Below are positions 5,212 to 27,808 of a stretch of DNA of 64,000 nucleotides, piece by piece (position 1 is the stretch's first letter; every line of letters begins with the position of its first letter). The stretch is from the IMG/VR virus record IMGVR_UViG_3300021387_000090, positions 1 to 64,000 of that record; one strand, given 5' to 3'. Source of the stretch: a virus. Taxonomy: Duplodnaviria; Caudoviricetes. The notes under the pieces are model-generated. The model was given only the letters and a program-made list of their open reading frames with translations, ran no database searches and was not told the origin of the DNA. The position numbers and the translations under genes were made by a program.

Positions 5212-5815
5212 TTTAACAAATATCCGTAGAAATTTAGAGTCCACACAAAATAACGATATTATTTATCGTAAGGCTGTGATTGAAAAAGCCTTTTATGACG
5301 ATCCTGATTTGCTAGAAGTATTAGGCCAACGTGAAAAGCGTCCTTTAAATAAATATATTGATCCAGATCATCCTACTATTCAAGAAAAACAATTACGGCA
5401 AGAGATTGAAGAATATAATAAAAAGGTCGATTCAAAAAAGATTATTCCTTATTTGAAATTGAATGGCGTTCAAAAAGAAGTGAATAATTTTATTATGTTT
5501 GAAGTTCGAGATTATGAAGCCTCCGCGCTTAACAAGGTTATTAAGACGCAACAAGTTACTGTTATGTGTGTTGTTGCAGAGGAGGATATGGATACTGAAT
5601 ATGGTATTCAGCGAACAGATCTTCTTTCTTATATTGTAAAGGATCTTCTTCAATGGAGTAATTGTGCTGGATTACAATTAAAATGTGTTTCTGATTTTGA
5701 TGATATTGTAGATGATAGATATTATGCTAGGGTTTTAAGATTTGAATCTCTTCTTCCTAATACAATTTCGGGTCATAATATAGGGATGACGAACAAATAT
5801 GACAGACTCCCTTAA
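5201..5815 (+). CDS. putative tail terminator/completion protein
   Basis: GGAGGTG RBS; position upstream of the tail tube gene. Confidence 0.4.
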   Translation: MKRDLTNIRRNLESTQNNDIIYRKAVIEKAFYDDPDLLEVLGQREKRPLNKYIDPDHPTIQEKQLRQEIEEYNKKVDSKKIIPYLKLNGVQKEVNNFIMFEVRDYEASALNKVIKTQQVTVMCVVAEEDMDTEYGIQRTDLLSYIVKDLLQWSNCAGLQLKCVSDFDDIVDDRYYARVLRFESLLPNTISGHNIGMTNKYDRLP

Positions 5816-6695
5816 AGATCAGGCAATTAAAAGGCTCAAAGAAAAACACGAAGCGGAAGCTAAAACTGCGGAGCAAAAAGCTCAAGATAAAAATGTTTAT
5901 GATACTATTAAGGCTTCCAATGCTCGTGTAAATGAAAAGACCCAGAAACCACAGTATGAATTTGACAAGTTACAATTGTATTTTGGTGAGCCTTTTGCTT
6001 TAACGGAAAAAATTATAATAAATCAACCCACGGTTGGAGATTTGATTCGTTTAGGCGAAAAGGAAGTATATAGCGTGGTACATATTTTTACCGCAAATAC
6101 AACTTCGTATAGACTTGTTTTATGGGATATGGGGATCGATTGGTGTAAAATAACAGATTATGATCTGTTCCAATTACTTAGTCCTACATTGACTCAATCA
6201 TCTACTCAGTTTTTATTTGGGGATATAGATTTCTCAAAATTGCAGAGATATAAAAAAGTGGTAAACGATGAAGAGACAATTGTTTTATATGATCCTGAAC
6301 AAGATTTAGAGATTGATAAAACCACTTATGAAAAACTTGCTTGGTATGTACGGAATATGTTTAATATATTTCCCAAAAATGAATTTGCCAAGGGTAAATC
6401 AACGAAGCAATCTATTATTGAAGAAGATAGAATGAATTTTGAAAAGCATAAGAATGATAAATATCAGTCTACTCTTTTACCGCTTATATCTGCATGTTTA
6501 AATCATCCCGGTTTTAAATATTCTAAGAAAGAACTTCCTGATGTCGGCATTGTTGAATTTATGGACAGTGTTCAGCGTTTACAGATTTATGAGTCTAGTA
6601 CAGCCTTACTTAAGGGGGCTTACTCTGGATTCATGGATACAAGTAAGATTGATCAAAAACAGTTCGACTTTATGCGTGACATAGGTTCTAAATAA
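5799..6695 (+). CDS. hypothetical tail-region protein
   Basis: 298-aa ORF overlapping the upstream gene. Confidence 0.6.
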   Translation: MTDSLKDQAIKRLKEKHEAEAKTAEQKAQDKNVYDTIKASNARVNEKTQKPQYEFDKLQLYFGEPFALTEKIIINQPTVGDLIRLGEKEVYSVVHIFTANTTSYRLVLWDMGIDWCKITDYDLFQLLSPTLTQSSTQFLFGDIDFSKLQRYKKVVNDEETIVLYDPEQDLEIDKTTYEKLAWYVRNMFNIFPKNEFAKGKSTKQSIIEEDRMNFEKHKNDKYQSTLLPLISACLNHPGFKYSKKELPDVGIVEFMDSVQRLQIYESSTALLKGAYSGFMDTSKIDQKQFDFMRDIGSK

Positions 6696-6712
6696 TATAA
6701 GACACTTTTAAT

Positions 6713-6732
6713 GAGCTAAAGGCTCTTTTTTT
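6713..6732 (+). terminator. short intrinsic terminator-like hairpin
   Basis: gagct-aaa-ggctc followed by T7. Confidence 0.45.
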
Positions 6733-6766
6733 ATTTGAAAAATTCCAAAAAAGGAGGTACACCACT

Positions 6767-7830
6767 ATGGCATTTATGTTGGGTAGATGTTGCCCAGTTA
6801 AGCAGTAATGCTTAACTTCAAAGCCACTATATCGGTTAAAATCCAGAGATGGACAAGACCGAGGAAAGACTTCTTTTTATAAAGAAGAATCCGTAACGAC
6901 TACAGGATATATATGGTGACATATATATTGAAGTGGCTCCCCTATTGTCTCGTAGGGTGAATATATAGTCTGAACTCACACTATAATCTAAAAACGAAAT
7001 GTGAGAAGTAAGTAGAAATACTTACTCGCCTATTTTTTAATAGGTCATAAAAGTAACAGAAAATGGACATTATTGTCGATAGAGTACAATTTGCGTATGG
7101 TGAAAAGCTGGATGGAACTCCTGTTCTGCTGATGTCCCAGCTTTCCGATTTTACTGTTGATATTACTGCCGAATCCAAGGACGCTGTGGATGCACAGGGT
7201 ACTCTGGTTAAGCGGTTCTGGCAAGCCAAGACTGGTGAAGTAACTGCTACGAACGCCATGATTAATTTCTCCGCTCTGGCTGCACAGGGTGGTACTGATG
7301 CTGAACTGGCTTCTGCTGCTCAGAAGATTGTAATGCCTAAGATCTCCGTCGTTAAGAAGGGTGAGACTCTGGATATTACTGGTTTTGTTGATGGTTCTAT
7401 TCATGTTTCTGCTATGAATAGTTCTGGTGGTATGGGTCAGGAATATACTCTGACTGAGTATAACGTAACTACTGATACTACAACTGGTAAGACTACTCTG
7501 ACCCCTCCCACGACTGCTGGTATCGATCAGTACATTGTTAAGTATGATCGTGAAGTAGAGGTTGGTGCGAGAATTGTAAATGAATCTGATAAGTTCCCCG
7601 GAACTATCAAGCTGACGGTTAAGGCTCTTGCTATCGATCCTTGTGCCGTAGATACGCTGAAGGCTCTGTATATCACCTTCCCGTCCTTCCAGATCAGCCC
7701 TGAACTGTCTCTGTCTCTGACTACAGATACGACAGTTGACTTTAACGGAACTATTCAGACTGCGTATTGCGGTGGTACTGAAAAGGCTCTGTACATTATG
7801 ACTTGGGCCGATGATGATAGCGAGGAATAA
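6767..7830 (+). CDS. major tail (tube) protein, spliced: join(6767..6784,7066..7830), 260 aa starting MAFMLG-DIIVDRVQF
   Basis: A strong AAAGGAGG RBS precedes ATG 6767, whereas ATG 7063 has no RBS. Removing the group I intron joins the exons in frame. Size, Thr/Gly content and capsid-like codon bias fit a tail tube protein. Confidence 0.8.
6785..7065 (+). ncRNA. group I self-splicing intron (IA-like, no homing endonuclease), 281 nt
   Basis: P1: UGGGU(6780-84)/GCCCA(6792-96) with a U.G pair at the 5' splice site. P10: AUGUU(6787-91)/GACAU(7066-70). P2: 6797-6816 with GUAA loop. P3: AGCCACU(6822-28)/AGUGGCU(6932-38). P7: GACUA(6898-6902)/UAGUC(6966-70). P7.1, P8 and P9 hairpins are present, and the terminal base is G7065. 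Confidence 0.92.
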
Positions 7831-7866
7831 TACTGTATTGAATAGATAATGATTATAAGTTTATCG

Positions 7867-7897
7867 ATAAGAGCGGGTATTTTTAACCCGCTCTTAT
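7867..7897 (+). terminator. stable hairpin/terminator after tail tube gene
   Basis: ataagagcgggt-7 nt-acccgctcttat. Confidence 0.6.
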
Positions 7898-8096
7898 ATT
7901 GCTTTAAAAACGAAATATAGAACATTTAGATATTATGTAGTTATTAATATAATACTTTAGAATAACTAAAAAATAAAATGAAGAGCGAAAACAATTCGGA
8001 ATTATTATTCCATTTAATATAGAGCAACATTAACGAGGAGACGTATTGTCTCCTATTTTATTATAAGCAAATATAGAATTATAAAGAAAAGGAGAC

Positions 8097-8432
8097 ATGA
8101 TTATGGCTACAAGTATTAAATATAATCGGAAATGTGTAATTTGTGGAAAAACTTATTCATTTTGTAATACGGGATGTGCAGAGGATAAAGACAAACCCTC
8201 TTGGATGACTGTATTTCATGATGATAATTGTAGGGAAATTTATTATACCTGTGCAAATTATGAAGTGGGACATTATGGTACAAAGGATCAAGCTAAGAAG
8301 AAGCTGAAGAAGCTTGATCTTACTAATAAAGAAAGCTTTAATCCAGTAGTTCAGGACTGGATTGATGATATTATGGGAACCGCTAAACCTGCTGAAGAGA
8401 GCGAATATACGTCAGACAGTTTAGAGGATTAA
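8097..8432 (+). CDS. small Cys-rich, putative Zn-binding protein
   Basis: CVICG...C...C...HDDNC motif; AAAGGAG RBS. Confidence 0.65.
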   Translation: MIMATSIKYNRKCVICGKTYSFCNTGCAEDKDKPSWMTVFHDDNCREIYYTCANYEVGHYGTKDQAKKKLKKLDLTNKESFNPVVQDWIDDIMGTAKPAEESEYTSDSLED

Positions 8433-11905: not shown

Positions 11906-14900
11906 ATGGCAGAAAAAATAAAAGGAATGGAGCCAGTTTCTGCGAATGAAGTTGGTCGAGCATTGGCAGATATAATCAATCCTGTATTAGCGGATGCTCA
12001 AAAAAGGGGCAAAGGAAAAGCAGAGGTTGAATTAAATATTAAACAAACTACCTCTGGTGGCGATCAAGTAAGAAAAGATTTAAAAAAAACGCAAAAGGCG
12101 CTTGATGAAGTAGCTAAAGCCAGAAAAGCTTTATCAAAAAGTCTTGAAAAAAAATCTGGTTTTGATCGTATTATAAGTTTTGCTTCGCCAGATCAAATTA
12201 AAGAGAGAATTCTTGGTTCGTTAAGCGCATATAATGATCTTCGGTTTAAATATCCAAAACAGAATAAAAAAGACGCACCAAAGTCGCAAATGAGTGCAGT
12301 AGTTACAGATATTTGGAATCAAATTAATTCTTACCAAGCTGTAATGGGCAATTCAAAAACAGCGCTTAGTGATTTATCTGCTTATGTGCAAGAACAAATT
12401 AAAGATGATACTGATATTAAAGAAAAAGATTTATTTGATACTTTCCTTAGAGAAAATTCTAACACGGTACGATCAACAGTCGCACAGTACATAGAGGATT
12501 ATAAAAATGCTTTACTAGTGGGTATTAAAGATGGCGAAAAAACATTGGTTAAATATGTTAAAAACGCCGCAGAAAAGATCAACAGTGATAAAGCAGGAAA
12601 GAAAAATTTTGTTCCAATAGATATTGATCGATTAGAAAAGGATTATTTAGATTTTGATACAGTATTTGAAGATGAAGAAGTAATAAAAGAATTACAGAAA
12701 AACTTGCAAGGTCGAGACGCAGGTAAGTGGACGAATAAAATTATACAAGATGCTGTTACGGCAAGAAAAAATAGAATAGAGCAATTAAAAAAATACTTTA
12801 TTTCAGCTGAAGAAGCGGAAAAGAAAATTGTCAGTTTGATAAAATTGCAGAAAGATCAATCAGAAATTGCCGAAGAACTTACTGCGAAATTTGATGCAGA
12901 GGATATTTCTCAAAAAGAAATAGATGAGATTAACAATCAATTATCTAGCATTGATGAAACAATTAATCAATTATTATCAAATAAATTTAAATACATAGCC
13001 GCTCAATTGGCAATGGGGAATAATAAAATTTTAGAACTTGATAAAGCGACTGACGAGAGTAATGATTATTCATATTCATATTATTTAAAACAGAATTTTA
13101 AAGATATTGGGGAACTTAGAGATTCTATAATTCATGATATATTTGATATTTCACAATTAAAATCTTCTATTTCTGGTAATCAACTCTCACTTTCCGTAAA
13201 AGAAAATGCTTTTTTAATGGACGAAGCAGATTTAGCATTACAAAAATTAAGGGCTGAATTTATCAAGGGTGCGATTCCAGATATAGATTCCTTTGTAAAG
13301 ATTATTCAAAAAGAATATACTACAGAATTCGAAAAAACTTGGAATATTGATAAGAATGGTAAATTCGGTCCGATACATGGTGGAGAAGCGAATGAAGTAT
13401 TTGGGAATTTTAATGAAACGGCTAATTTACAATCTAATTGGCATACTCACAGTACCACGCCCGTGCCCTCAGCTATAACACGAAAAAAAGAGGGGGATTG
13501 GTTTACTTGGTTAAATAAAGCTATTACTTCCAATGAAACTTTTGGGCAAAAAAATGTTATCCCGTATTTTGGTATTAGGGGCAAAGATTATTCGGTAATT
13601 GTAGATTTCAGTGATATAAAGCCTAAAGATAAAGCTGGCCTATATGATGATTTTAAGAAGTTTGAATATCCCGAGGGTGATTGGCGTAAAGATTGGATGG
13701 GTGTTTTAGAGACACAAAAGGATATTTTTAGAAAACGTGGATATGATCCCGAAAAAATAATCCAAGTATTTAAAAACTCTGAATTAGATGCGATGACCAA
13801 TGAATCTATTCAACAGACATTGGATCTTAGTAAAGCTTTAATACAGGCTCGACAAGACGCTCTTAATGCTGTTCAGGTTACTACTAAAGCTATAAAAGAG
13901 CAAAAAGCAGAAGCAAAACCGTCAACTCCCAATCCTTCTACTCAACGTCACTCTCCTTCTTTGCCATCCAAGCCTCAACAAACTCCTGCACCTCAAATAA
14001 AGCAAGAAGCCGAAGCACGACAAGAAAATGCCGAAGCTGCTCGTGAAGAAGCAAAAGCTGTCGAAGAGAGTAATGAGAAAAAATTTGTACCTTATTCTAA
14101 AAAAGATGTTCTTGAAGTTGTTAATTCAAAAAAGGAAAAAGCAAGAAAATTTCCTCAACATATTTTTAAGAAGTACGGGGTTCAAGAGAGTGATAGTTTA
14201 GAGGAAACTTTAGCTAGTTATATTTCTGCTATGGAAGATTATAAAGAAGAACGAGACGAGGAAAACGCAAGATTAATCAAATTAGTAACAACTTCTTATA
14301 ATCAAATAATGCAAAAACAATTTGAAAGCGGTAAAGGAGAAGTACCAAAAGACTTCCCTTTCAAAGATCGAAAATTTGCAGAAGGGGCGGTTACCTATTT
14401 AAATTATCAAAACGCAGAAAAGTACTTTAACGAAGCTATTGAGAATTTGAAGCAACAGATTGAAGCCGCAAAGCAAGCAATTCCTACACCAGAGGAGGTT
14501 CAAGAAGAGGTAAACGCTGTTGTCTCTGATGAGATAAGTACAGTTTCAAATCCTCCTGCTCCCCGAGATATAATGGGGCCATTTCGTGCGCTTACAAAAG
14601 AAATGATTGAGTCCAGATTAGAGCAAATGGATTCAATGTTTGAAGATCCTAACAAAATAATAGAATATTATCATTTGCCTACAAATAAAAAAAATAAAAC
14701 ATATAAAGAAGTTTGGCAACGAGCATTAAAAAAAGTAACTAATTATTTTGATTATGATAAAGAAATTGAAAAATTAATTGAAGATTCTAAAGATTCTACA
14801 AAGGAATATGGAGGTTATGAAGCAGCAAGCTGGGTTATGGATCCTTCATTGCTGACAGAGCGTTTACAATTTCTCAAAGATGAATTAGTTCGAATTAAAT

Positions 14901-17900
14901 ATTTAGAGGAGGTTGTATCTGGTTTTGCGTCTGAATATAAAGCCCTTAATCTCTCTGAAATTACTTCTCTTATTGACGAGCATTCTATTTCAATTCCTGA
15001 TCCAGATGAATTATTTGCTAGTTATGGTGTCACTTCTGAAAATCGATCAATAGAAACTTTACTTGAAGCAGAACAAAAGTTTATTGAAGAAAGAGCAGAA
15101 CAACAAGCTGAAATAGAAAACAAGCTTGTTGAATTGTATAATACTTTAGCTAAAGAGGGTGAAAATCCTTTTGAAGACGCACGTTTTCTTCAACTTGCTG
15201 GGGATTATCAATTTTTCCAAAAGGGTGCTGATCTTTTTATAGAAGAAATTGAACATGTTAGAGAAGAAATTCAGCGTGATGCTGAAATGAGTCGTGAACG
15301 AATTCGTAATGCTATAGATGAACGGTTAAGAGATATTGTTGTTGATGAAGAACAGCCTTCCATTGAGCGTGGTGAATTATTAGAATTAGCAGAACAAAGA
15401 AAACAAGCCACAGAGAACATAGCAATAGAACAAAAAGCGGAGGCAGAGAAACTTGAAAGTAATTCTGCTGTAATTAATCAAGAACGACAAGCCACTGACG
15501 GCTTACGAAATTCTACTAATGCAGCAACTGAAGCTTCTAAACAGCATACTGCTTCAATGGCGCAAGAAGCTGCTCAAGTAGAAAATTTGAAAAATGCCGC
15601 TCAACAAGCTGCCGATTCGATGAAAGGTCTCAACAATGCAAAACAAGAATCGGCTTTTAGTGGTGGAAATGGTGCCGTACCTCCTACAGGTGGAGGTGGT
15701 AGTACCCCTCCTCCTACTTCTCCTCCGCCAACAAACGGTAGTTCTGGTAATGGTCCGAATGGACCAAACGGTCCGTCTAATGAGGATTTAGAAAAATTAT
15801 TAGCGACTATTAATAGTATCACTAATGAATTACGAGAATTGCAACGGCTTGAACAAGAAGCTTCTACCAATCCTCAACCTTTTACAGATTATGCTTTTGA
15901 AATTGAAAAAGCTAAAGAACAATTACGCTTATATAAATTAGAATTAGAAGATTTACTTCAAACAAAATTTCATTCTTCTTCTAATGATCTTTCCGATATA
16001 AATTTCTTAAATCAGTTTTCATATAGTGCTAAACAAAATAGTGCATTTCAAAGCGGTTTAGGTGACATGCAAAAAGCAGGAAGTGATCTTGGTATTACTT
16101 ATATGCAACAAGCCAAAGCAGTATTTACACAATACATAGAAGAATTTCAAAGATACCTTTCTATGATGGAAGGAAATACTACTGGAAACTTTGATGCGTC
16201 ATTAGAAGAACAAAGACAAACGGTTTTACGTTTGCAAAACGCCTATCAATCATTGTATTCTGAAATGCAAAAAATGAGTTCATCGGGAATGGCAAAAATT
16301 GATTTTGCAACCTTTGAGAATGGAATGCAAAGTCTTTTTGATACGGCAAATAAGTTAGAATCTACAGATAGTAAAGAAAAAATAATTGATTCATACATTG
16401 AAAAAATCGCAAGCTTAAGAGAGCAATTTAGGAATATGGGTGATTCTGCCCCTACTGGTTTTATAAGTTCTTTAGATTTAATGAAATCAGAATTGCAAAG
16501 TTTAAAAGAACAAATACAGCAAGGAACCATTACTTGGAATGAATTTCATAAAGCAATGATGTCTGGTGGATATTCTACCGATTTAGGTAAAATGGATAGT
16601 TTTCTTAATATCCAACCAATTATTGATCAATTTGAGGGCGTAGCTAATGATCGTATTCCTGAATTTACCAAAGAGTTAGAAAGTTTAAAGCAAAAGTTTG
16701 CAGAACTTATGAGTACTACCGATCCTAAACGAATAAAGGAATTAAGCAATGAAATGCTTGGATTGGTAAAACAACTTACTGATTTGGACAAAATAATTGT
16801 TCATGATACTGGTAAAGGGACTTTATTTGACGTAGGCCAAATTAAATCTATTGATGATATGCGTCAAAAGATGGATGCTTTTGCTCAAAGTGCTAAGTTA
16901 GGTAGTTTACAGAGCCAAAAATTATCAACAGATGGTAAAACCTTAACTAGAATTTATCAAGATGCCTCTGGAAGAGTGTATGAGCTTAAAGGAAGAATTG
17001 ATGAAGAAACGCAAGCTTGGAGAGCAAATTTACAGACAAAATCTAATGTAAATAATTTTTTAAAAGGATTTAGTTCTAGTTTTGTGGGATTGGCTAAAAA
17101 TTTGACAATGTTTGTGTCTGTTGGACGTTTGGCGATGAAAGTGCGTCAAGAGTTTTCTAAAGGATTAAATACTTTTAAAGAATATGATAAAACATTAACT
17201 CAAATTAGTTATACAATGAATTTAACTAAATCTGAATTAAGTGATCTTGGTCAATCTGCAGTTAATATGGCTAAAGATTTATCTATGTCATTATCTAATG
17301 CCGAGGCAGTGTTTCAGATTTATGCTAACATGAATACAACGGCTGAAGAAATTCAGAAAACAGCTAAACCTACAGTAATTTTAAGTAACTTATCTGGCGT
17401 TGATGCATCTAAAGCTGCTGATGAAGTTCAGGGTATTTTACAACAGTTTAATATGCTGAAGGACTCTGAAGAAGATGTAGCAGATGTTTCTATGCATATT
17501 GTTGACGTTTTAGATAATATTTCTGCCAATGTCGCAATGGACTACGCCAAGGGAATTGATGTAATTACTCAAGCTGTTACTGCAACGGGTCAGGTAGCCT
17601 ATGATGCTGGCATGTCGTTTGAACAATTAGCCGCTATTTCTGCTAAAGTTGCAGAACGTACTCGTGAAGATGGTTCTACTATTGGCAATGCTTTAAAAAC
17701 AATTATTACTCGTACTTCTAAAGTTGGTAAAATGCCACAGTATTCTGATGAAGTTGATAATGAAACTTTGTCAAAAGCGTCAGAATCTTTATCTGCTGTT
17801 GGTATTAAAGTATATGAAGCCAATGGTGAAATGCGAAGTATGATTGATATTCTTAGTGATCTTCGTGAAAAGTGGGACGGCTTAAGCGATGCTCAGAAAA

Positions 17901-20900
17901 GTAATATTGCTTTTAATATTGCCGCTACTAGACAAACTTCTAAATTTAAGAATATTCTTGAAGCATGGAATGATGCCATGTCTCTTGCCAAAGAAGCAAC
18001 TACGGCACAAGGCAATGCATTAGCAAATCAGGAAAAATTTCAAGAATCTTTTGCAGGAAAGACTCAAGAAATCCGTACTCAGATGGACGCATTTTGGATT
18101 AATTTCTTTAATTCAGATGCCGTTGATAATATATTGGATTTTGTAATTAATCTTACTGAAGCTTTTAATGGATTAGCAGATGCTATTTCTCCTGTTGGTG
18201 CTTTATTAACTACTGTTTTTGGTGGAATAGTAGTTAAAAGTATTAGTAGTGGTCTTTATCAAGGTATCATTGGTGCTTTTGGTGCTTCTGGATTAAAAAA
18301 AGCAATAATTAAAGCTTTTGCAAGCTTTAAATTTAATTCTTTGTTAAAACAAGGAATGGACGATGGTACAATTGAACAAACAATGAAAAATAGGTTTTCT
18401 AGTTTGGGATTAGCAAATTATACTAAAGCGACTTTACAAGCAGAATTAGCAGGAAAATCTTTGTTAAAGACATTGGGATTAACTGCACTTGGTATTGCGG
18501 CTGTTACTGCGGGTGTTTATCTTGGGGTGAAGGCATATCAAAGATTCGGTATGTCAACAGATCTTATTATTAAACGTAATAATAAACTAATTGAATCACA
18601 GAAGAAAATTGCCAAACAACATCAAGAAGTTATAGATGAAAACAATAAAAATGCTGATTCTTTACAAAATTTATTAGAAAAATATGAAGAAGCTGAAATT
18701 GGTTCTCAAGATTATTATAATATTCGTGCGCAAATTGCTGAACAATTTCCGAATTTAATTACTGGATACGATTCTGAAGGTAGGGCTATTATTGCTAATA
18801 CTGAATTAATTCGTCAACAAATTGAAGCATATCGAAACTTGTCTGTAGCCGAGCAAGAAGCAATGAGAGAAGAAGCGGGGGAAAATATTGATAAGGCTAT
18901 CAATGGTGAAAAAACAGGCTTTTGGATGTTTGGCACTGGTGATAATGGTGTTAAAACACTTATTGCACAAAGAAACAAGGATATTGCAAGTTTAAAGGAA
19001 CTTGATGACACTGAGGAAAAGTGGCAAAAAGATCATGATCGTCTTATAAGAGAGATGAACGATACCACTCTTTCTATGAGAGATCGTACTAGGGCTAGAG
19101 AAGAATACGAGATGTTGGGGCCGTCACCCAAAGAGGCAAATGATCTCTTACGAGAAGGGTATCAAAGTTCAATAAAAGAAGCTAATACACAGTTATCCAC
19201 TTTACATTCCTATTTTAAAAGCCAATATGCATTAATTGCAGGTGATTTATCAGATCTTTCTACTGATCAAATCAGTGCTATGGATCAATTAGAACAATTG
19301 ATGTCTCGTTATTTTGAGAATGGATCTGATTTTTCTGATGCCGCTGATAGTATTAAGCATATGGGTGATATGCAAGCAAAAAATTTGTCTGACTTAATTT
19401 CATCTTTATTAACTCCAGATTTATCAAACATTAATGTTCAAGAATATAAAGAAGTTATGGAAGAAAGACTCCAAAGCGTCTATTCATTACTTCAAAAATA
19501 TATGAATGCAGATGATTATGCTGAATTAGTATATCAAATGGACATAAATGGTGGTGCAGAGCGTATAGAGCAACAAATTGAAAGCATTGTTTCGAATGTA
19601 AATTATCAAAACATCGCCCAAAAATTAGGAATTAATTTGGAAGAAGTTTTAAATGGATTAAATGTTAAAGAATTAAATATATTTGATCCAGATGCTTTCT
19701 TTTCAGAACAAGTACAAAGACAAATTTATTCTAAATGGGGAAATGTTATTAAGAATCTTAATAATGTTACTCTCCTTAGTTTACAAGACATAGATTGGAA
19801 CTCAATTTTAGCTTCTGCGGGTTCATATGCTAATATTGCTGACATTGCTAATCAAATAATTAGTACGGGTATATTGGGCGATCCAGAAAAGATAACTATT
19901 CCTATACAAGCAGCTATTGATAAAATGGCTGAATGGGGTTGGATTGTTGATGATACTGCCGAGGGGATTAAAAATCAGTTTGATTTAATACAATCTTCTA
20001 TCTCAGAATCTCTTAGTAATCTTTCAAAATCTTATGATATTTATAATACAGCTATAACTGAATCAAATAAAAACGGTTATCTATCTCAAGAAACGTATTC
20101 AGAATTAATAGCAAGAAATGCTGAATATGCAGACGCTATCACTGAAACTGCTTCTGGGCTTACTTTGGATACTAAAAAAATGAGAAACCTCAATCGTGAG
20201 GAAAAGAAAGGTATTCAAAAAAAGCTTACTAAAGAAAGAATTGATCTTGCTAACCAATATGATAAGAATACAAAGAAAATCGAAGAATACAGCAAAGAAT
20301 TAGTCAAAGCCCAAACCGAAGAACGCAAGAATGAGTTAACAAATTTTATTAATAATTTACTCGATTCTAATAGTGCTATTGAATCTAACATCGGCTCTTT
20401 AAGAGATCTGCAAAATCAATTGAATGCTACTGGTACAGCATGGGATGAGTGGCAAAAGGCTCAAAATTCTGGAAACCCCTCTGATAGATATTTTGAAGCA
20501 GGAAAAGGATTTGATGCTTGGGAAGAACTGCGTAAAAAAGGGTTAACAGGTACTGATGATTATCAGAGTTTCGTAAGATTACTCACTGGATTGGAAAATG
20601 AAGAAACTGTTACTTCTAAAGAGACTGCAAAATTTATGGAGTATCTTAACAAACGGTATTTTACCGAAGATCGTAGTGGGTTACAGAATCTTTATGATGA
20701 TATTGAAGCAGTTTATAAAGAAAACGGTTTAGAGTCATTAATTCTTGAGAACGGCGAACTTGATATTACTAATACCAAAATGATTGCCAAATTATTATCA
20801 GAGAAATACCAAAAAAAATATGGTAAGAACTCTGGTCTTACGGCTGAAGCTTTAGAAATATTGCTTGGAGCTGGCTCTGATTTTAATATGGGTGATCCTT

Positions 20901-23900
20901 TATCAGATGGGACGTATTCAGATAACATTGAAAAACTAAAAGAGAATCTTGAGCAATTACAAGAACTCCAAGCAAAAGAAGATCCTAATTCTAAGGAATG
21001 GCAAGAATGGCAAGAAATCATTAATGAAGTTAATAATGAACTTCGTGAAATGGAGATTCTTCAAAACACTGTGATGGATCAAGATAAAATGACTGATTTG
21101 CTTGGAAAAGCAAATCAATTTGGTTATAGAGATCCAACTACTGGAGAGCAAAAAACTTTATCTGCTAAATTAGTATATAAAGATGTTGAAGAAGCTACTG
21201 AAGATTTGGTTCAATTTGAAGAAGCCCGTAGACAACTTCTTGAAAAGAAAGAATTGAATGGCGGTATCCTTTCTGAAGAAGATCAAGCAAGCTTAGATGC
21301 GATTAGTGCTATTCTTTCATATATTCTTGGACAAAAGCAACAGTTTGAACAGCCTTGGGTTATGTCTGTAGATACTAGTCAATTAGATGCGAAAACTGGT
21401 GCTTTTATAAGCAAATTAAAAGAATATTATAAAACCGTAGAACTGATCCAACAATTGAAAGAACAGGGTAATTTAGGAACCACTGAAGGTCAGGCTGAAT
21501 TAGAGAAGTCTAAACAATTACTTGAAGAAATTCGGCAATTAGATAAAGAATCTGGGGGACAATTATCTGCTTCTATAGGTTTAGAGCTTAATGAAGGAAA
21601 TATTCCTGATCAACTTAAATCTATCTTTGGTTTTAAAGACGGAGAAGCGGTCAATGGTAAATTGACAGTTGTTATTGATGAAGATGCATTCAATCTTAGT
21701 CATACGCCTGTTGATGATTGGATTACCAAAGTAGAGTCAGAAAATGTTGGAATTACTATTGTTTTTAAAGATGCTCAAGGTAATGATATTACTAGTTTGG
21801 TGTTGGGGCAACATAGTATTATAAATAGAGGAGGTGTTGGGGCAGGTGGTATATTTGGTCTTCCTCCAAAAGCCAATTCTAATTCTAATCCTGGCTCTAA
21901 TAATAATTCTTATAATAATCAAAACACGACTACTGCTGAGATCCCTCTTCTTGAAAAGAGCGTATCTCTTAGTGAGAAATCAAAACGTCATCAAAAAAAT
22001 TATCAACAGCAACAACAACAACAATATGATGATGAAATATATAATGCGGCCTTAAGAGTATATGAGGCCGCAGAAGACGCTACCAAACGAGGGTTGGGGG
22101 AAGTTGCTCAAAAGGATCTTCAAGATTGGTTACAGATCTTAGAAGAAGGTGATGGCGGTACTGAGAAAGCTTCTGAATCTGTAAAGCAAAAAATCAGAGA
22201 ATTGTTTTTAGGATTGGATGTCGATGACCCTAATGCTATTGCAAACCCTGTGAAAGAAACTGAAAAGGCGGCTGATGCATTAGCGAAAGCTACGAATAAC
22301 TTAAGCAAAGAGCAAGATACTAATAACGAAAAGCAAAAAGAATATAATAAGGAATTAGAAAAAACAATTAACCTATCTAACGAGAGGGACGATATAGGGA
22401 CTCAATCTCGTGGGGACACAACTCAAATAATAACGGATCCATATGTAGGGCCTATGTCAGAGCCAGAACCAGAGCCAATAGGATATGGTCATGGTGCGAA
22501 AATTAAAGTTGACGTTGAAGCCGAAGCAGAAGAAGGGTCTGGCAAAGAAGCTGTAGAAGAAATCAAAAAAGAAGTTGATTCTTCACCTACGGTTGAAGTA
22601 AAACCTGAATTTGACTATTCTTCTCTTTCAGGTAATGAACAGCAACTTTATGATGAAGCTAAAGAATTTGTAGAATATGGCGAAGAGTCATTTAAGGTTT
22701 GGTATAACCAACACTTAGAAGAAATTCGTAATGCATCTACTGAATTACAAAATGCAATCAACGAGTTGTTAAACGGTGGGTCTGAGGGATCTAATGGTCA
22801 AACCGCAGAGGTGGAAGTTGGTGTTACGGTTCCAGATAATGCCGCTGAACAATTGTCTGGTGATATTGGCACTGTAGATGTAGAAACACAATTTAAATCA
22901 CCTACAGTACCAACAAATGAAATTGATTCTGGAAGTACTTATACTCTTGATACTTCTGATGCTGAAAAAGGATTAGATAATATTGTAGAAGGTGCGGAAG
23001 ATGTTGAAACAGCAATTGGCAACGCTTCAAAAAAACAATTGGGTGATGTGGGGACGCCTATAACCCGTCAACAATTAGATGATACAATCACCAAACTTAC
23101 TAGTGTTGGAAATACTACAGATGAAGTATCTACACACAATATTGGAGATTTAGGCGCTATCGCTGCTTCTTCGTATATGAGTACGCTTGACTCAGACATA
23201 AAAAATGTTGGAACTGATTTTGATAGTTTAAATCGAACCGCTACTCTTACATTAAATATAAAAACCAATGGGAGTGTCCCTGAAGGTGGGACTATAAGTA
23301 GCACAGGCGGGACAGGTAATTATAAAGGCACTGCTTCTTTTGCTCACGGTACTTGGTCATTTGGTCAAGCGTTCGCTAAAGGTAACATTGGAGCGCCCAG
23401 AAGTGAAGAAGCATTAGTTGGTGAACTTGGCCCTGAAATGCGTGTACGTGGTTCTCGTTGGGAGTTACTGGGGCAAAATGGCCCCGAGTTCCGTGATATC
23501 AGGAAAAATGACATAGTTTTTGACGCAGACCAGACCGCTGATCTTCTCTCCCGAGGGAAAACAGATAGACGAGGTAAGGCTTTTGCTCATGGTACTAGTG
23601 GAACGGCTTATGGAAGGTTTAAACGAAATCCTGATGATGCAGGTGGAAGTTCTAGTAATTCTGGTTCAAGTGGTAGCAAAGGTAATAGTGGTAACACAGG
23701 TAATAATAACGGTAATAACAATACTGAAAAAGAAACCAAATCTGCACTTGATACCCTTAAAGAAGGTTGGGGTAGAATAATTGATTGGGTTGCTGTAAAA
23801 CTTGAAGATTATAGCAGACGAGTGGATAAGTTGATGTCTAAAGCTGAACGCACTTGGACTAAACTTGAAGTTCGTGATAAATATTATGATCGTGCCATTC

Positions 23901-26900
23901 GTAAAATAGATGCTTCTATTAAAATTACCAGTAAAGGTGCTGATCGTTATAGTAGACGAGCCGAGGGTGTTTTGCGTCAAGGGAAAAATGCTATTGGTAC
24001 GAAGAGTTCTGATGCTCGAAAAGCACAAAAAGAAATTGATGAAGCAGTAGCTTTAATTAAAGCCGGTGGTAATGTTAAACATATCAAGACATATTCTGAA
24101 GATGCCAAGACTGTTATTGATGAATATCAGAAATGGTATGATCTTGCAAGAGATACGCAAGATAAGCTTGATGAACTTGAAGATCAGCGTCATGAATTAG
24201 AGAAGTCAAGAATTGAATTGTTAACTAATCGTTTTGATAGTAAAATCAATCATATTTCTTCTAAAGCAGAACGAGTGCAATCACAGATATCTGCACTTGA
24301 ATCTATGGATATGTTTGCTGATTCTAAACAGTATGAGCAAATTAATAAGTATAATCAGCAACAAATCAATCTTTATAATCAACAGATTGCAGCCTTTGAA
24401 AAAGGACAATCAAAAGTTGCGAAATATAGTGAAGATTGGTATGAATATCAAGACAGTATTGATTCTGCTAGAGCATCTATAGATGACTTAACTACTTCAA
24501 TGATTGAAAATGCTATGTCAGCGGCTCAACTTCATACTCAATTAGCGCAATTGAAGAATGAGAAGCTTGATAAGCAAAATGATATTCTTGATGCAAAGAT
24601 TGAACGTGATCAATTAGGTATTATAGATAGAAGGGGCATTACTGCCAAAGGACTTAATGTTCGTTCTTATGTTTATCAAAAGAATGCCAACACAGGACAA
24701 AAGGTTGCTAATTTGCGAACAGCAAATAATAGTAATGCGACTAATGTTCGTAATGCTACTAATAATCTTGCCAATGCTAAACAAACTAAAGAATACTCTG
24801 CTCTAATGAAGCAGATTGTTAGCGCCGCAAATGGTACAGATGAAATCCCTTCAAATTTAGTTTCTAAGATTTTCAGTGCTTTACAAGCAGATCCTAGCAA
24901 CACTACTCTTCAGTCCTTCTATAGGAAAGTTTTAGATTACAATGCTGCAATCAAAGCTTATGTACAGGGTCAATATGATTATGAGATGGCCCAGATTCAG
25001 GCTAAAGCGGATGCACAAGCCAATGCTGAAGCTATGAAGAGTAATCGTCAAGCTAGACGAGATGCTAGGAATGAAAAGGCTGAAAATTTGTATAATGTAA
25101 CTGCTAACTTATTTGAAAATGATAATGGTACAAATTTTGGCTATGGTCAATCAAAACGTGATGCAGAGGCAACAAAGATTGGTTTAAACAATAAAGCAGA
25201 TGATAAATATGTTAAAGAAGTATTGTCCGATCTTAGATCTACAACTAATAAAAATAATTCTGCTATTACTAAAGAATTAAATAAGAAAGGCAGTGTAAAC
25301 AAAAAGGGATATAAGCAAGCATTAAAGAATGCTCAAACTGCAATGAGTAGTGGCAAGCTTATTAGCGATGGTGATATTAATGTTATTCAAAAATACAATC
25401 CTGAATTAGCTGCTCAATTATTGATGTATAATTTCCAAGTAGGTGATGCTGAAGAAGCAAAATTAGAGCAAGCTACAAATTATGCGGCGAATAATGCTCG
25501 TTTGAATGAACTTACTAATGAGAAGTATGAAAAGCGAAAGAGTATTGCGGATAATAGGATTGAGCGGAATGATGCTTATATAGAGAATGGTACTTCAGAT
25601 ACTGAGAGAAACAAGTATTTATCTAAAAATAATCATCAAATAGATAATAAACTTAAGGAGAATTATGATCGTACCGAAGAATTCTTAGATCAAAGAGATA
25701 CTGCTGCTAAGAGAGTCAATAGACAAATCAAAAAAACAGATCTTGAGAGTATGCCTAAACATTATCGACAAGCTGTTGATCATGCTTTGAAAGATATTAA
25801 AAATGGATATTCTATTGGTGATGAATTCTTAGAAATAATTGCAGATGGTTATCAAAAGGGATATATAAGTTATACATTATATAAATCCTTTATTGATTAC
25901 AAAGAAGCCAATGAGTGGTATCGTCAATCAAAATATGCTCAAGAATTAGAGGCTCAGACTTTAAAGAAGCAGAAAGCACAAAATTCTGTTAAGATGCTTC
26001 AAAATATTGCTACCGAGCATGAACGTAGACGGGCAACAAGAACTAGAGGTCGTGCGGGAGAAAATATTAGAGGGATCACTGGTTATAATCGTAATGGTAC
26101 TAATGCTACTGCGGCTAATAGATCTTTCGCCCAAACAATGGGACATTATACAAATGTTGCTGATATTGAAGATGATATTATGACCGCTACAGAAAATTAT
26201 GCTGATGCATATCAAGAGTATCAGAAATTGAAAGATAAATTTGCTGAACAATATAAAGCTGGTGCTTTTGAAGAAGGTAGCGATGAATGGCATGAGCAAC
26301 TTGATATAATTGAAAATGCTCGTCAAAATATGGATGGGTTTGTCCAAAGCATTGAAGAATTGAAAGTTGAAATGCGAGATCTGGAATGGCAAAAGTTTGA
26401 TGATATGATGGCATCTATCAAAAGACTGAATGCTGAGTATGAGTATTTCCAAGGTTTGATCGCTAATGAAACTTTCTTTGACGAGGATAATAGAGGACAT
26501 ATTACTCGTTATGGTATGGCTGCGGGTTTGTTGCATAAAGAAGCATATCAAACTGATTTAAGCGAGGCATTAAAGTATCGTGATGAACTGATTGAATTGA
26601 ATGCACAAATTGAAGCAGGTATTAAGAACGGTGGTCTTGATGGAACTTCTAAAGATGTTATTGAGCGTCAAAGACAATTAACAGACGCTATTCGTGAGTC
26701 TGTAAATGCTGCTGAATCTGAGAAACAAGCTTTAATTGATTTGGTTCGTCAAGGTTATGAGGCACAACTCTCCGCTCTTAACAAATCAATTTCCAAATAC
26801 AAGGATCTGAAAGATGCTGAAAAAGAAGCCTATGATTATCAGAAAGATATTACTGAACAAACAAAGAATATTACTAATCTGCAAAAGCAATTGGCAGCAT

Positions 26901-27808
26901 TCGAGGGTAATACTTCTGAAGAATCTATTGCGACCGTGCAGAAACTGCAAGCTGATTTAGAGCAAGCTGAAAGTGATCTTCAAGATAAGCAATATGAAAA
27001 GTACTTATCTGATGCGCAAGATATGCTTGATGATCTTTCTAATAATTTCCAAGAGTGGATTGAATATTATATGAAAGATCGTGATCAGGTATTTGACGAT
27101 ATGCTGGAAGAACTGCGTGGTATTTCTTCTCATCTTGGAGATAATTTAGGAACTCTTTATCGTAATTCTAAAGATACAATGGATTTGTTAAAGGGTGTAG
27201 AAACTAACTATTTTGGAGATAAAAGCAATGAAACTCTTCAAACGCTCTCCAATGATGTTAAAATTGGTTTAATGGATATTAAGAATGATAAAACCAATCT
27301 TAATGATAAAGTTGTGAGTGGAATTGAAGAAGGATTCGAGAAAGTTGTAAATAAACAAGAATGGCGAGAATCTACTGAAAAGCAAATTAATAAGAAAGGA
27401 TACGCTTCAGGTAGTAAGAAGATTCTTTCTGATCAGCTTGCATGGACGCAAGAAAATGGTACAGAGGCTATTTATCGTAAATCTGATGGTGCTATTCTTA
27501 CACCTCTTGGTGCAGGTGATATGGTCTTCACTCATGCTATGACAGAACAATTATGGGAGTTGGCAAATATGAATATTCCTAATATGATTAAAGATTCGTT
27601 TGCACAACCTGTTGTTCAAAATCAGCAAGATGTTGTTATGAGTCCTAATACTAATATTCAGATGAATATTACTTTACCGAACGTGAAGAACTATGATGAG
27701 TTTAAACAAGCTATGCTTAATGATAAGCAATTCCAGAATGGTATACAAGCTATGACTTTAGGAGCCGCTATGGGACATAATTCATTAAGTAAGTTGAAGT
27801 ATTCGTAA
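11906..27808 (+). CDS. giant tail tape measure protein (5300 aa)
   Basis: TP901-type core at ~17180-18070 (EQLAAISAKVAERTREDGSTIGNALKTI), hydrophobic segments, extensive coiled coil, and LVGELGPE and GYASG..AWTQENG motifs typical of tape measure C-termini. Confidence 0.9.
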   Translation: MAEKIKGMEPVSANEVGRALADIINPVLADAQKRGKGKAEVELNIKQTTSGGDQVRKDLKKTQKALDEVAKARKALSKSLEKKSGFDRIISFASPDQIKERILGSLSAYNDLRFKYPKQNKKDAPKSQMSAVVTDIWNQINSYQAVMGNSKTALSDLSAYVQEQIKDDTDIKEKDLFDTFLRENSNTVRSTVAQYIEDYKNALLVGIKDGEKTLVKYVKNAAEKINSDKAGKKNFVPIDIDRLEKDYLDFDTVFEDEEVIKELQKNLQGRDAGKWTNKIIQDAVTARKNRIEQLKKYFISAEEAEKKIVSLIKLQKDQSEIAEELTAKFDAEDISQKEIDEINNQLSSIDETINQLLSNKFKYIAAQLAMGNNKILELDKATDESNDYSYSYYLKQNFKDIGELRDSIIHDIFDISQLKSSISGNQLSLSVKENAFLMDEADLALQKLRAEFIKGAIPDIDSFVKIIQKEYTTEFEKTWNIDKNGKFGPIHGGEANEVFGNFNETANLQSNWHTHSTTPVPSAITRKKEGDWFTWLNKAITSNETFGQKNVIPYFGIRGKDYSVIVDFSDIKPKDKAGLYDDFKKFEYPEGDWRKDWMGVLETQKDIFRKRGYDPEKIIQVFKNSELDAMTNESIQQTLDLSKALIQARQDALNAVQVTTKAIKEQKAEAKPSTPNPSTQRHSPSLPSKPQQTPAPQIKQEAEARQENAEAAREEAKAVEESNEKKFVPYSKKDVLEVVNSKKEKARKFPQHIFKKYGVQESDSLEETLASYISAMEDYKEERDEENARLIKLVTTSYNQIMQKQFESGKGEVPKDFPFKDRKFAEGAVTYLNYQNAEKYFNEAIENLKQQIEAAKQAIPTPEEVQEEVNAVVSDEISTVSNPPAPRDIMGPFRALTKEMIESRLEQMDSMFEDPNKIIEYYHLPTNKKNKTYKEVWQRALKKVTNYFDYDKEIEKLIEDSKDSTKEYGGYEAASWVMDPSLLTERLQFLKDELVRIKYLEEVVSGFASEYKALNLSEITSLIDEHSISIPDPDELFASYGVTSENRSIETLLEAEQKFIEERAEQQAEIENKLVELYNTLAKEGENPFEDARFLQLAGDYQFFQKGADLFIEEIEHVREEIQRDAEMSRERIRNAIDERLRDIVVDEEQPSIERGELLELAEQRKQATENIAIEQKAEAEKLESNSAVINQERQATDGLRNSTNAATEASKQHTASMAQEAAQVENLKNAAQQAADSMKGLNNAKQESAFSGGNGAVPPTGGGGSTPPPTSPPPTNGSSGNGPNGPNGPSNEDLEKLLATINSITNELRELQRLEQEASTNPQPFTDYAFEIEKAKEQLRLYKLELEDLLQTKFHSSSNDLSDINFLNQFSYSAKQNSAFQSGLGDMQKAGSDLGITYMQQAKAVFTQYIEEFQRYLSMMEGNTTGNFDASLEEQRQTVLRLQNAYQSLYSEMQKMSSSGMAKIDFATFENGMQSLFDTANKLESTDSKEKIIDSYIEKIASLREQFRNMGDSAPTGFISSLDLMKSELQSLKEQIQQGTITWNEFHKAMMSGGYSTDLGKMDSFLNIQPIIDQFEGVANDRIPEFTKELESLKQKFAELMSTTDPKRIKELSNEMLGLVKQLTDLDKIIVHDTGKGTLFDVGQIKSIDDMRQKMDAFAQSAKLGSLQSQKLSTDGKTLTRIYQDASGRVYELKGRIDEETQAWRANLQTKSNVNNFLKGFSSSFVGLAKNLTMFVSVGRLAMKVRQEFSKGLNTFKEYDKTLTQISYTMNLTKSELSDLGQSAVNMAKDLSMSLSNAEAVFQIYANMNTTAEEIQKTAKPTVILSNLSGVDASKAADEVQGILQQFNMLKDSEEDVADVSMHIVDVLDNISANVAMDYAKGIDVITQAVTATGQVAYDAGMSFEQLAAISAKVAERTREDGSTIGNALKTIITRTSKVGKMPQYSDEVDNETLSKASESLSAVGIKVYEANGEMRSMIDILSDLREKWDGLSDAQKSNIAFNIAATRQTSKFKNILEAWNDAMSLAKEATTAQGNALANQEKFQESFAGKTQEIRTQMDAFWINFFNSDAVDNILDFVINLTEAFNGLADAISPVGALLTTVFGGIVVKSISSGLYQGIIGAFGASGLKKAIIKAFASFKFNSLLKQGMDDGTIEQTMKNRFSSLGLANYTKATLQAELAGKSLLKTLGLTALGIAAVTAGVYLGVKAYQRFGMSTDLIIKRNNKLIESQKKIAKQHQEVIDENNKNADSLQNLLEKYEEAEIGSQDYYNIRAQIAEQFPNLITGYDSEGRAIIANTELIRQQIEAYRNLSVAEQEAMREEAGENIDKAINGEKTGFWMFGTGDNGVKTLIAQRNKDIASLKELDDTEEKWQKDHDRLIREMNDTTLSMRDRTRAREEYEMLGPSPKEANDLLREGYQSSIKEANTQLSTLHSYFKSQYALIAGDLSDLSTDQISAMDQLEQLMSRYFENGSDFSDAADSIKHMGDMQAKNLSDLISSLLTPDLSNINVQEYKEVMEERLQSVYSLLQKYMNADDYAELVYQMDINGGAERIEQQIESIVSNVNYQNIAQKLGINLEEVLNGLNVKELNIFDPDAFFSEQVQRQIYSKWGNVIKNLNNVTLLSLQDIDWNSILASAGSYANIADIANQIISTGILGDPEKITIPIQAAIDKMAEWGWIVDDTAEGIKNQFDLIQSSISESLSNLSKSYDIYNTAITESNKNGYLSQETYSELIARNAEYADAITETASGLTLDTKKMRNLNREEKKGIQKKLTKERIDLANQYDKNTKKIEEYSKELVKAQTEERKNELTNFINNLLDSNSAIESNIGSLRDLQNQLNATGTAWDEWQKAQNSGNPSDRYFEAGKGFDAWEELRKKGLTGTDDYQSFVRLLTGLENEETVTSKETAKFMEYLNKRYFTEDRSGLQNLYDDIEAVYKENGLESLILENGELDITNTKMIAKLLSEKYQKKYGKNSGLTAEALEILLGAGSDFNMGDPLSDGTYSDNIEKLKENLEQLQELQAKEDPNSKEWQEWQEIINEVNNELREMEILQNTVMDQDKMTDLLGKANQFGYRDPTTGEQKTLSAKLVYKDVEEATEDLVQFEEARRQLLEKKELNGGILSEEDQASLDAISAILSYILGQKQQFEQPWVMSVDTSQLDAKTGAFISKLKEYYKTVELIQQLKEQGNLGTTEGQAELEKSKQLLEEIRQLDKESGGQLSASIGLELNEGNIPDQLKSIFGFKDGEAVNGKLTVVIDEDAFNLSHTPVDDWITKVESENVGITIVFKDAQGNDITSLVLGQHSIINRGGVGAGGIFGLPPKANSNSNPGSNNNSYNNQNTTTAEIPLLEKSVSLSEKSKRHQKNYQQQQQQQYDDEIYNAALRVYEAAEDATKRGLGEVAQKDLQDWLQILEEGDGGTEKASESVKQKIRELFLGLDVDDPNAIANPVKETEKAADALAKATNNLSKEQDTNNEKQKEYNKELEKTINLSNERDDIGTQSRGDTTQIITDPYVGPMSEPEPEPIGYGHGAKIKVDVEAEAEEGSGKEAVEEIKKEVDSSPTVEVKPEFDYSSLSGNEQQLYDEAKEFVEYGEESFKVWYNQHLEEIRNASTELQNAINELLNGGSEGSNGQTAEVEVGVTVPDNAAEQLSGDIGTVDVETQFKSPTVPTNEIDSGSTYTLDTSDAEKGLDNIVEGAEDVETAIGNASKKQLGDVGTPITRQQLDDTITKLTSVGNTTDEVSTHNIGDLGAIAASSYMSTLDSDIKNVGTDFDSLNRTATLTLNIKTNGSVPEGGTISSTGGTGNYKGTASFAHGTWSFGQAFAKGNIGAPRSEEALVGELGPEMRVRGSRWELLGQNGPEFRDIRKNDIVFDADQTADLLSRGKTDRRGKAFAHGTSGTAYGRFKRNPDDAGGSSSNSGSSGSKGNSGNTGNNNGNNNTEKETKSALDTLKEGWGRIIDWVAVKLEDYSRRVDKLMSKAERTWTKLEVRDKYYDRAIRKIDASIKITSKGADRYSRRAEGVLRQGKNAIGTKSSDARKAQKEIDEAVALIKAGGNVKHIKTYSEDAKTVIDEYQKWYDLARDTQDKLDELEDQRHELEKSRIELLTNRFDSKINHISSKAERVQSQISALESMDMFADSKQYEQINKYNQQQINLYNQQIAAFEKGQSKVAKYSEDWYEYQDSIDSARASIDDLTTSMIENAMSAAQLHTQLAQLKNEKLDKQNDILDAKIERDQLGIIDRRGITAKGLNVRSYVYQKNANTGQKVANLRTANNSNATNVRNATNNLANAKQTKEYSALMKQIVSAANGTDEIPSNLVSKIFSALQADPSNTTLQSFYRKVLDYNAAIKAYVQGQYDYEMAQIQAKADAQANAEAMKSNRQARRDARNEKAENLYNVTANLFENDNGTNFGYGQSKRDAEATKIGLNNKADDKYVKEVLSDLRSTTNKNNSAITKELNKKGSVNKKGYKQALKNAQTAMSSGKLISDGDINVIQKYNPELAAQLLMYNFQVGDAEEAKLEQATNYAANNARLNELTNEKYEKRKSIADNRIERNDAYIENGTSDTERNKYLSKNNHQIDNKLKENYDRTEEFLDQRDTAAKRVNRQIKKTDLESMPKHYRQAVDHALKDIKNGYSIGDEFLEIIADGYQKGYISYTLYKSFIDYKEANEWYRQSKYAQELEAQTLKKQKAQNSVKMLQNIATEHERRRATRTRGRAGENIRGITGYNRNGTNATAANRSFAQTMGHYTNVADIEDDIMTATENYADAYQEYQKLKDKFAEQYKAGAFEEGSDEWHEQLDIIENARQNMDGFVQSIEELKVEMRDLEWQKFDDMMASIKRLNAEYEYFQGLIANETFFDEDNRGHITRYGMAAGLLHKEAYQTDLSEALKYRDELIELNAQIEAGIKNGGLDGTSKDVIERQRQLTDAIRESVNAAESEKQALIDLVRQGYEAQLSALNKSISKYKDLKDAEKEAYDYQKDITEQTKNITNLQKQLAAFEGNTSEESIATVQKLQADLEQAESDLQDKQYEKYLSDAQDMLDDLSNNFQEWIEYYMKDRDQVFDDMLEELRGISSHLGDNLGTLYRNSKDTMDLLKGVETNYFGDKSNETLQTLSNDVKIGLMDIKNDKTNLNDKVVSGIEEGFEKVVNKQEWRESTEKQINKKGYASGSKKILSDQLAWTQENGTEAIYRKSDGAILTPLGAGDMVFTHAMTEQLWELANMNIPNMIKDSFAQPVVQNQQDVVMSPNTNIQMNITLPNVKNYDEFKQAMLNDKQFQNGIQAMTLGAAMGHNSLSKLKYS

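Follow-up and report, generated by a model that had tools for sequence, protein, structure and literature searches.

Group I introns in the td, nrdB and nrdD genes of phage T4 and in bnrdE and bnrdF of phage SPbeta interrupt genes of nucleotide metabolism, and most of them carry homing endonuclease genes. Tail tube genes, too, are known to harbour group I introns in phages (PMC11878797, PMC2504315), and the arrangement described below is therefore less unusual than the original prediction implied. In the Staphylococcus phage Twort, three self-splicing group I introns interrupt orf142 (Landthaler and Shub 1999), which, according to a later account, was subsequently recognised as the tail tube gene (PMC11878797). 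In prophages of the Bacillus cereus group, introns of this class reside in tail tube, tape-measure and terminase genes, and the group I introns of bacteria and prophages generally have stop codons early on, in P1 or P2 (Tourasse and Kolsto 2008, PMC2504315).

The locus analysed here adds an SPbeta-like group of gut and rumen phages to those with a group I intron in the tail tube gene. The window, i.e. the whole analysed stretch of 64,000 nt, corresponds to positions 1 to 64,000 of the IMG/VR record IMGVR_UViG_3300021387_000090, which at 154,699 bp and with terminal repeats represents the complete genome of an uncultured gut/rumen phage, whose DNA is present in ruminant gut samples. Positions 6785-7065 are, with high probability, a functional protein-less self-splicing intron of group I (IA-like, of the phage type), inserted between codons 6 and 7 of a tail tube gene of the YomU type. 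The gene and its immediate surroundings comprise the following elements:

6713-6732, plus strand: terminator-like hairpin and T-run closing the upstream gene (ORF 5799-6695), seen in the sequence
6752-6757, plus strand: Shine-Dalgarno sequence AGGAGG, 9 nt 5' of the ATG, identical in the intron-less relative L001
6767-6784, plus strand: exon 1, the ATG and five codons, encoding MAFMLG (sequence, homologues, alignment with L001)
6785-7065, plus strand: ORF-less group I intron of 281 nt, ending in omega-G7065 (RF00028, gap in L001, helices)
7063-7065, plus strand: intron-terminal ATG, in frame with exon 2 and without a ribosome-binding site, the false start used by gene callers (ORF list, gene calls)
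7066-7830, plus strand: exon 2 of the tail tube gene, 254 codons and the stop, opening with DIIVDR (ORF, homologues, fold)
7867-7897, plus strand: terminator-like hairpin 3' of the tube gene, seen in the sequence

The boundaries of the intron are given by comparison with L001, whose DNA is 81-83% identical to the window in the flanks over 5 kb, and which aligns with one clean gap of 281 nt at GGGT/GACATT, the ribosome-binding site and exon 1 being identical. This exact gap fixes the intron at 6785-7065, in phase 0. The protein family provides a second view of the same junction. The search revealed 347 relatives, and the N-termini were read in the 120 listed among them, which are mostly about 260 aa long. 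Nearly all of these 120 open with MAF-x-L-(G/D)-D-I-I-V-D-R, in agreement with the start MAFxLGDxIVDR that the original prediction had anticipated for intron-less homologues. The closest among the matches listed, P0001, is 95% identical, 260 aa long and opens with MAFMLGDIIVDR; the spliced product of the window's gene would have the same length. Three N-terminal residues, F3, D11 and R12, do not vary across the aligned family, and M1, L5 and D7 hardly do; therefore, the residues encoded by exon 1 are under selection.

Beyond the preceding gene, whose last position is 6695, the strong ribosome-binding site and the ATG at 6767 that had been predicted to encode MAFMLG are indeed present, the former as AGGAGG at 6752-6757. 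Read without splicing, the frame from this ATG runs into TAA at 6806-6808 and yields a peptide of 13 aa, exactly as foreseen, with an intron-coded part that is not conserved. The next long ORF begins at ATG 7063 and encodes 255 aa. That this ATG is in frame with exon 2 and devoid of a ribosome-binding site had also been claimed correctly: no GGAG or GAGG was found 5' of it, in comparison with 70 of the 124 long ORFs genome-wide that are preceded by one of these motifs, and with 3.7% of random positions. We have rejected ATG 7063 as the main translation start, because it has no ribosome-binding site and because the conserved N-terminus would go missing; given its presence in frame at the end of the intron, unspliced RNA may nonetheless yield some truncated protein. 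Since the last three bases of the intron form this codon, gene callers report an intact-looking gene of 255 aa, as the original prediction had it, and the corresponding form (P0121) is present in the NCBI, ENA and Logan gene calls. Owing to the combination of a truncated call and a missed ribozyme, the true conserved N-terminus has been lost from the databases.

The ribozyme itself can be assigned helix by helix. The block from the P3 5' strand to P6a occupies 6822-6892, the catalytic core, including J8/7, occupies 6898-6970, and the peripheral 3' helices occupy 6975-7045:

6786-6797, plus strand: internal guide sequence (helix check), the sole segment fully rewritten in copies at other sites
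6798-6815, plus strand: P2 hairpin, with a GUAA loop that holds the in-frame TAA 6806-6808; two compensatory pair changes relative to L013
6822-6827, plus strand: P3, 5' strand (Rfam alignment, helix check)
6832-6837/6857-6862, plus strand: P4 (Rfam alignment, helix check)
6842-6845/6850-6853, plus strand: P5, with a GAGA loop (Rfam alignment, helix check)
6863-6865/6890-6892, plus strand: P6 (Rfam alignment, helix check)
6870-6876/6881-6887, plus strand: P6a (Rfam alignment, helix check)
6898-6902/6966-6970, plus strand: P7, catalytic core (Rfam alignment; compensatory change of A-U to G-C)
6907-6915/6920-6928, plus strand: P7.1, catalytic core, with a GUGA loop (Rfam alignment)
6933-6938, plus strand: P3, 3' strand, catalytic core (Rfam alignment)
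6940-6944/6953-6957, plus strand: P8, catalytic core (Rfam alignment; compensatory changes)
6975-6980/7000-7005, plus strand: P9, peripheral 3' helix (full covariation in L250)
7007-7014/7019-7026, plus strand: P9.1, peripheral 3' helix, with a GAAA loop (full covariation in L250)
7028-7034/7039-7045, plus strand: P9.2, peripheral 3' helix (helix check)

The final 6 nt of exon 1 (6779-6784) constitute the 5' strand of P1, which pairs with 6792-6797 over 6 bp and places the wobble U6784.G6792 at the 5' splice site, after U6784. P10 is formed by 6786-6791 and exon 2 positions 7066-7071, again over 6 bp. All pairs are canonical in P1, P10, P2, P3, P4, P5, P6/P6a, P7, P7.1, P8, P9, P9.1 and P9.2, and thus the helices named in the original prediction, together with the U.G pair at the splice site and the terminal G7065, could all be located. 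The Infernal comparison with a group I model over the intron region, which had been suggested as a check, returned a match to RF00028 that spans model positions 1-253, with the J8/7-P7 consensus typical of the class. Its score of 32.8 bits (E 1.1e-6, with the 501 nt of 6650-7150 scanned alone) lies below the gathering cut-off of 50 bits, a value set for curation rather than on biological grounds; the intron was not reported in Rfam scans of the whole window at both thresholds or in the scan of its own genome. The match and the exact gap relative to L001 together bear out the prediction of an ORF-less group I intron at these splice sites. The region is also unusually stable (MFE z-score -6.96, with none of 100 shuffled sequences equally stable). 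No sense-strand ORF of at least 30 aa exists within 6785-7065, and an endonuclease gene was neither found in the intron nor noticed among the neighbouring genes.

The host gene encodes, according to the modelled fold and the Pfam name of its homologues, an SPbeta YomU-type siphovirus tail tube protein. PF27173 (YomU_Tube) is recorded, as a precomputed annotation, for most of the homologues, including the 95%-identical P0001, and the neighbouring gene corresponds to YomW. PHROG 2729, a family of virion structural proteins, matches the tube protein with an E-value of 6e-15, and the family profile compared to the PDB matches solved tail tube protein(s) with an E-value of 4e-4. An AlphaFold2 model of P0001 (pLDDT 84.8) exhibits the tail tube fold in a Foldseek comparison, its best PDB matches being the tail tube proteins 8xkn, 8ygm and those of JBD30, Chi and YSD1 (E 1e-13 to 1e-10). 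Of these, 8xkn and 8ygm, the latter entitled 'The cryo-EM Structure of SPR', give E-values of about 1e-13 and TM scores of 0.65-0.71. The earlier label "major tail protein" is thus right by both the profile search and the fold match. Relatives of the tube gene occur in genomes or bins labelled Lachnospiraceae, Faecalimonas, Ruminococcus and other Clostridia, and one in a bin labelled Parabacteroides goldsteinii, while the phage GenBank collection yielded no match at the level of either DNA or protein. Further downstream, the window contains one unbroken ORF of 5300 aa (11906-27808, plus strand), followed by ORFs of 1738 aa and 2360 aa; the first of these could encode a giant tape-measure or fibre protein.

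The most informative relatives of the intron are found in L012-L014 (3300021254_000934, 3300021387_000175 and 3300021431_000081), phages of 136-156 kb whose tube protein is 76% identical to that of the window. They carry a sister copy of the intron, 83% identical over 276 nt and scoring 31.5 bits against RF00028, at a different site (site 2) located about 48 codons downstream, between the conserved motifs GTLV and KRFWQ, in phase 2 (GU/A). Site 1 is empty in L012-L014 and site 2 is empty in the phage of the window, and the P1/P10 guide differs between the two copies, each fitting its own site. Outside the guide, five of the compared helix pairs, in P2, P7 and P8, have changed on both sides and are still paired; apparent breaks in P6a turned out to be a register shift of the alignment, the helix being canonical when read alone.

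Additional members of the lineage, L250, L248, L249 and L247, were found with a shared 31-mer of P4-P5. L250 contains an ORF-less intron, 74% identical, in a tape-measure gene; L248 has an intron of about 1.4 kb at the same tape-measure site, with an ORF in the P6a loop; and L249 also has an ORF in the P6a loop. In L247 (about 7000-8200) an intron of the same lineage was observed with an ORF in the P6 region. L248, L249 and L250 have the same 3' end, GTAACAGA...G, and the 5' exons of all copies of the lineage end alike, in (U)GG(G)U. A check of the individual helices for covariation between the window copy, L013 (83%) and L250 (74%) showed all 14 of them to be canonical in each of the three, with sequence differences among them in P1, P2, P3, P6a, P7, P7.1, P8, P9, P9.1 and P9.2; in L250 the helices P2, P3, P7.1, P9 and P9.1 have an entirely different sequence and are fully paired. 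An exact 24-mer of P7.1/P3' matches only the three sister loci, blastn of the intron revealed no second close copy in its own genome, and tblastn found there no homologue of the tape-measure exons of L248 and L250. A search with the pattern of the intron end joined to exon 2 gave one match in viral contigs and 32 in metagenome contigs, all of which we judge to be due to chance, none of the 32 encoding a tube homologue.

The 90%-identity cluster of the tube protein contains nine distinct sequences, eight of them of the 260-aa intron-less form, the ninth being the truncated 255-aa call from the window. The phages can therefore do without the intron, and its sporadic occurrence is typical of a selfish element rather than of a regulatory device. 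It is best read as an ORF-less member of a selfish lineage that resides in tube and tape-measure genes of related phages of Clostridia. As no endonuclease is encoded in the intron or was noticed nearby, present-day mobility would require either a factor acting in trans or reverse splicing. It is tempting to consider that the ORF-less lineage moves among conserved sites of tail genes by reverse splicing directed by its guide, without an endonuclease of its own, the sites being codons 6/7 of the tube gene here, codons 54/55 of the tube gene in the sister phages, and the tape-measure genes of L248 and L250; we regard this scenario as tentative and on balance rather unlikely. If it were true, phage populations would keep both the before and the after states of an ectopic group I intron transposition.

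Introns are by no means confined to these two sites of the tube gene. Two short ENA contigs (L005:1-144 and L006:1-175), whose tube protein is about 51% identical, contain a differently built intron at site 1, which scores 41 and 30 bits although its 5' part is missing from both contigs, has two hairpins between P7 and P3' and ends in an in-frame ATG. In L245 (about 2107-2418), a Lachnospiraceae bin from sheep, the tube homologue is interrupted near codon 196, adjoining an invariant DPC motif, by about 310 nt of inserted sequence, which we presume to be another intron. A distant tube homologue in L170 (about 29% identical) contains two group I introns, at 7362-7682 and 7810-8154, with scores of 61 and 60 bits, i.e. 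above the Rfam cut-off; they lie near codons 223 and 252, close to the 3' end of the gene, and are split by an exon of about 90-130 nt. Taken across the protein family and the distant sister clade, introns occupy at least five positions of the tube gene, and the three sites in the close family are all within invariant protein motifs. Elsewhere in the genome of the window's phage (G000), a type-II tRNA-Leu(UAA) at 95075-95455 (minus strand), not called by ARAGORN, is apparently split between U34 and A35 by a 297-nt group I intron (RF00028, 27.8 bits), at the classic position of the cyanobacterial and plastid intron. Two other matches to RF00028, at 141622-141880 (plus strand, 43 bits) and 67030-67321 (minus strand, 40 bits), contain internal ORFs, of which the one in the match near 67 kb has clear motifs of an HNH endonuclease.

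From the sequence and structure of the element, its covariation, its exact insertion and the identity of the host gene, we infer that it splices and that production of the tube protein depends on splicing. In the pre-mRNA, the only ribosome-binding site would be that of the 18-nt exon 1, and because this exon is so short, the ribosome-binding region adjoins the exonic strand of P1. The guide at 6786-6797 is predicted to pair with the end of exon 1 in P1, with the U.G pair at U6784, and with the beginning of exon 2 in P10. An external guanosine would cut after U6784, omega-G7065 would dock, and the exons would be ligated as TTGGGT/GACATT. The spliced mRNA would then be translated into a tube protein of 260 aa opening with MAFMLGDIIVDR, whereas ribosomes on the unspliced RNA would make only the 13-aa peptide and halt in the loop of P2.

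In four sequencing runs, of which the RNA run from the source sample gave no contig of the locus at all, no contig spanning this junction was present. A 251-nt contig from a sheep metatranscriptome that covers only the interior of the intron (6820-7053) was considered as evidence of splicing and rejected, as its 5' end differs and it represents another member of the family. The contigs of the phage in the source DNA run (X1) extend into the intron from either flank (6500-6932 and 7005-7900), with no change of depth, and break inside it. A 134-nt contig of the core (6903-7034) has a depth of about 150x, compared to 22x for the phage, indicating that the core of the intron is a multi-copy repeat in the source metagenome. 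We note that an intron lineage that behaves as a metagenome repeat can fragment assemblies.

The multi-copy core and the contigs that break within it could suggest that the 281-nt insert is not an intron at all, but a MITE-like repeat or an assembly chimera. This we find hardly conceivable, given that the insert matches the group I model over its full length, that its guide is complementary to both exons, that it is in frame and its removal restores the conserved N-terminus, and that phage contigs of the source run reach into it from both sides at the depth of the flanks. It is also highly improbable that the intron is a dead relic, which no longer splices and whose host makes the tube protein as the 255-aa form from ATG 7063, without the first five residues. 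Such a reading would profit from the fact that this ATG is in frame and accepted by gene callers, and from the unrelated-looking intron at the same site in L005 and L006, which ends in an in-frame ATG as well. However, ATG 7063 has no Shine-Dalgarno sequence, while a strong one, conserved in the intron-less relative, precedes exon 1, and among the residues lost would be F3, which is invariant, and L5, which is nearly so. Moreover, the core is intact and differs from its relatives by compensatory changes, which points to ongoing selection on the structure, and both P1 and P10 match the insertion site exactly.

A splicing intron could, on the other hand, have been co-opted as a gate that ties the synthesis of the tube protein to the level of GTP or Mg, to the growth state or to late timing, in which case translation initiation and the formation of P1 would compete through the 18-nt exon 1. 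The 5' splice site, 18 nt past the start codon, may well lie within reach of the initiating ribosome, and the terminator-like hairpins on both sides suggest that the tube gene may be its own transcription unit. Yet phages with nearly identical tube proteins dispense with the intron (eight of the nine proteins of the cluster), the same intron at other sites and in other genes of relatives follows the pattern of a selfish element, and early stops in P1 and P2 are general among bacterial and prophage group I introns (PMC2504315). Hence we consider a regulatory role quite unlikely, if somewhat less so than loss of splicing, and favor a functional selfish intron.

The case does not change the known picture of phage introns. 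What is particular to it is the 18-nt exon 1, the false start formed by the last three bases of the intron, and the fact that the intron is missed by default gene callers and by Rfam. In addition, copies of one ORF-less group I intron at two sites of the same gene, in which only the guide has been rewritten, provide natural material on intron relocation. The introns of T4 and SPbeta share with the tube intron the ribozyme class, extra helices of the P7.1 type, the U.G pair at the 5' splice site, the terminal G and early in-frame stops. In contrast to them, the tube intron has no ORF and resides within a virion gene. The introns of the B. cereus-group prophages, going by their description, resemble it in that they are in frame and reside in genes for late structural proteins, tail tube and tape measure among them, their stops within the first 27 nt end translation in P1/P2, and related introns are common to different genes and phages (PMC2504315). 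The hosts differ, being here uncultured gut/rumen phages of Clostridia, as does the family of the tube protein. With Twort orf142 (PMC11878797), the locus shares the location of a group I intron in a tail tube gene carried by a large phage of Firmicutes and an abundant late structural protein that relies, here presumably, on ribozyme splicing. However, the tube protein of Twort, a myovirus, is unrelated, and its gene contains three introns, whose splicing was demonstrated by experiment, whereas here a single intron, with splicing predicted from its sequence, interrupts the tube gene of an SPbeta YomU-type siphovirus directly behind the start codon.
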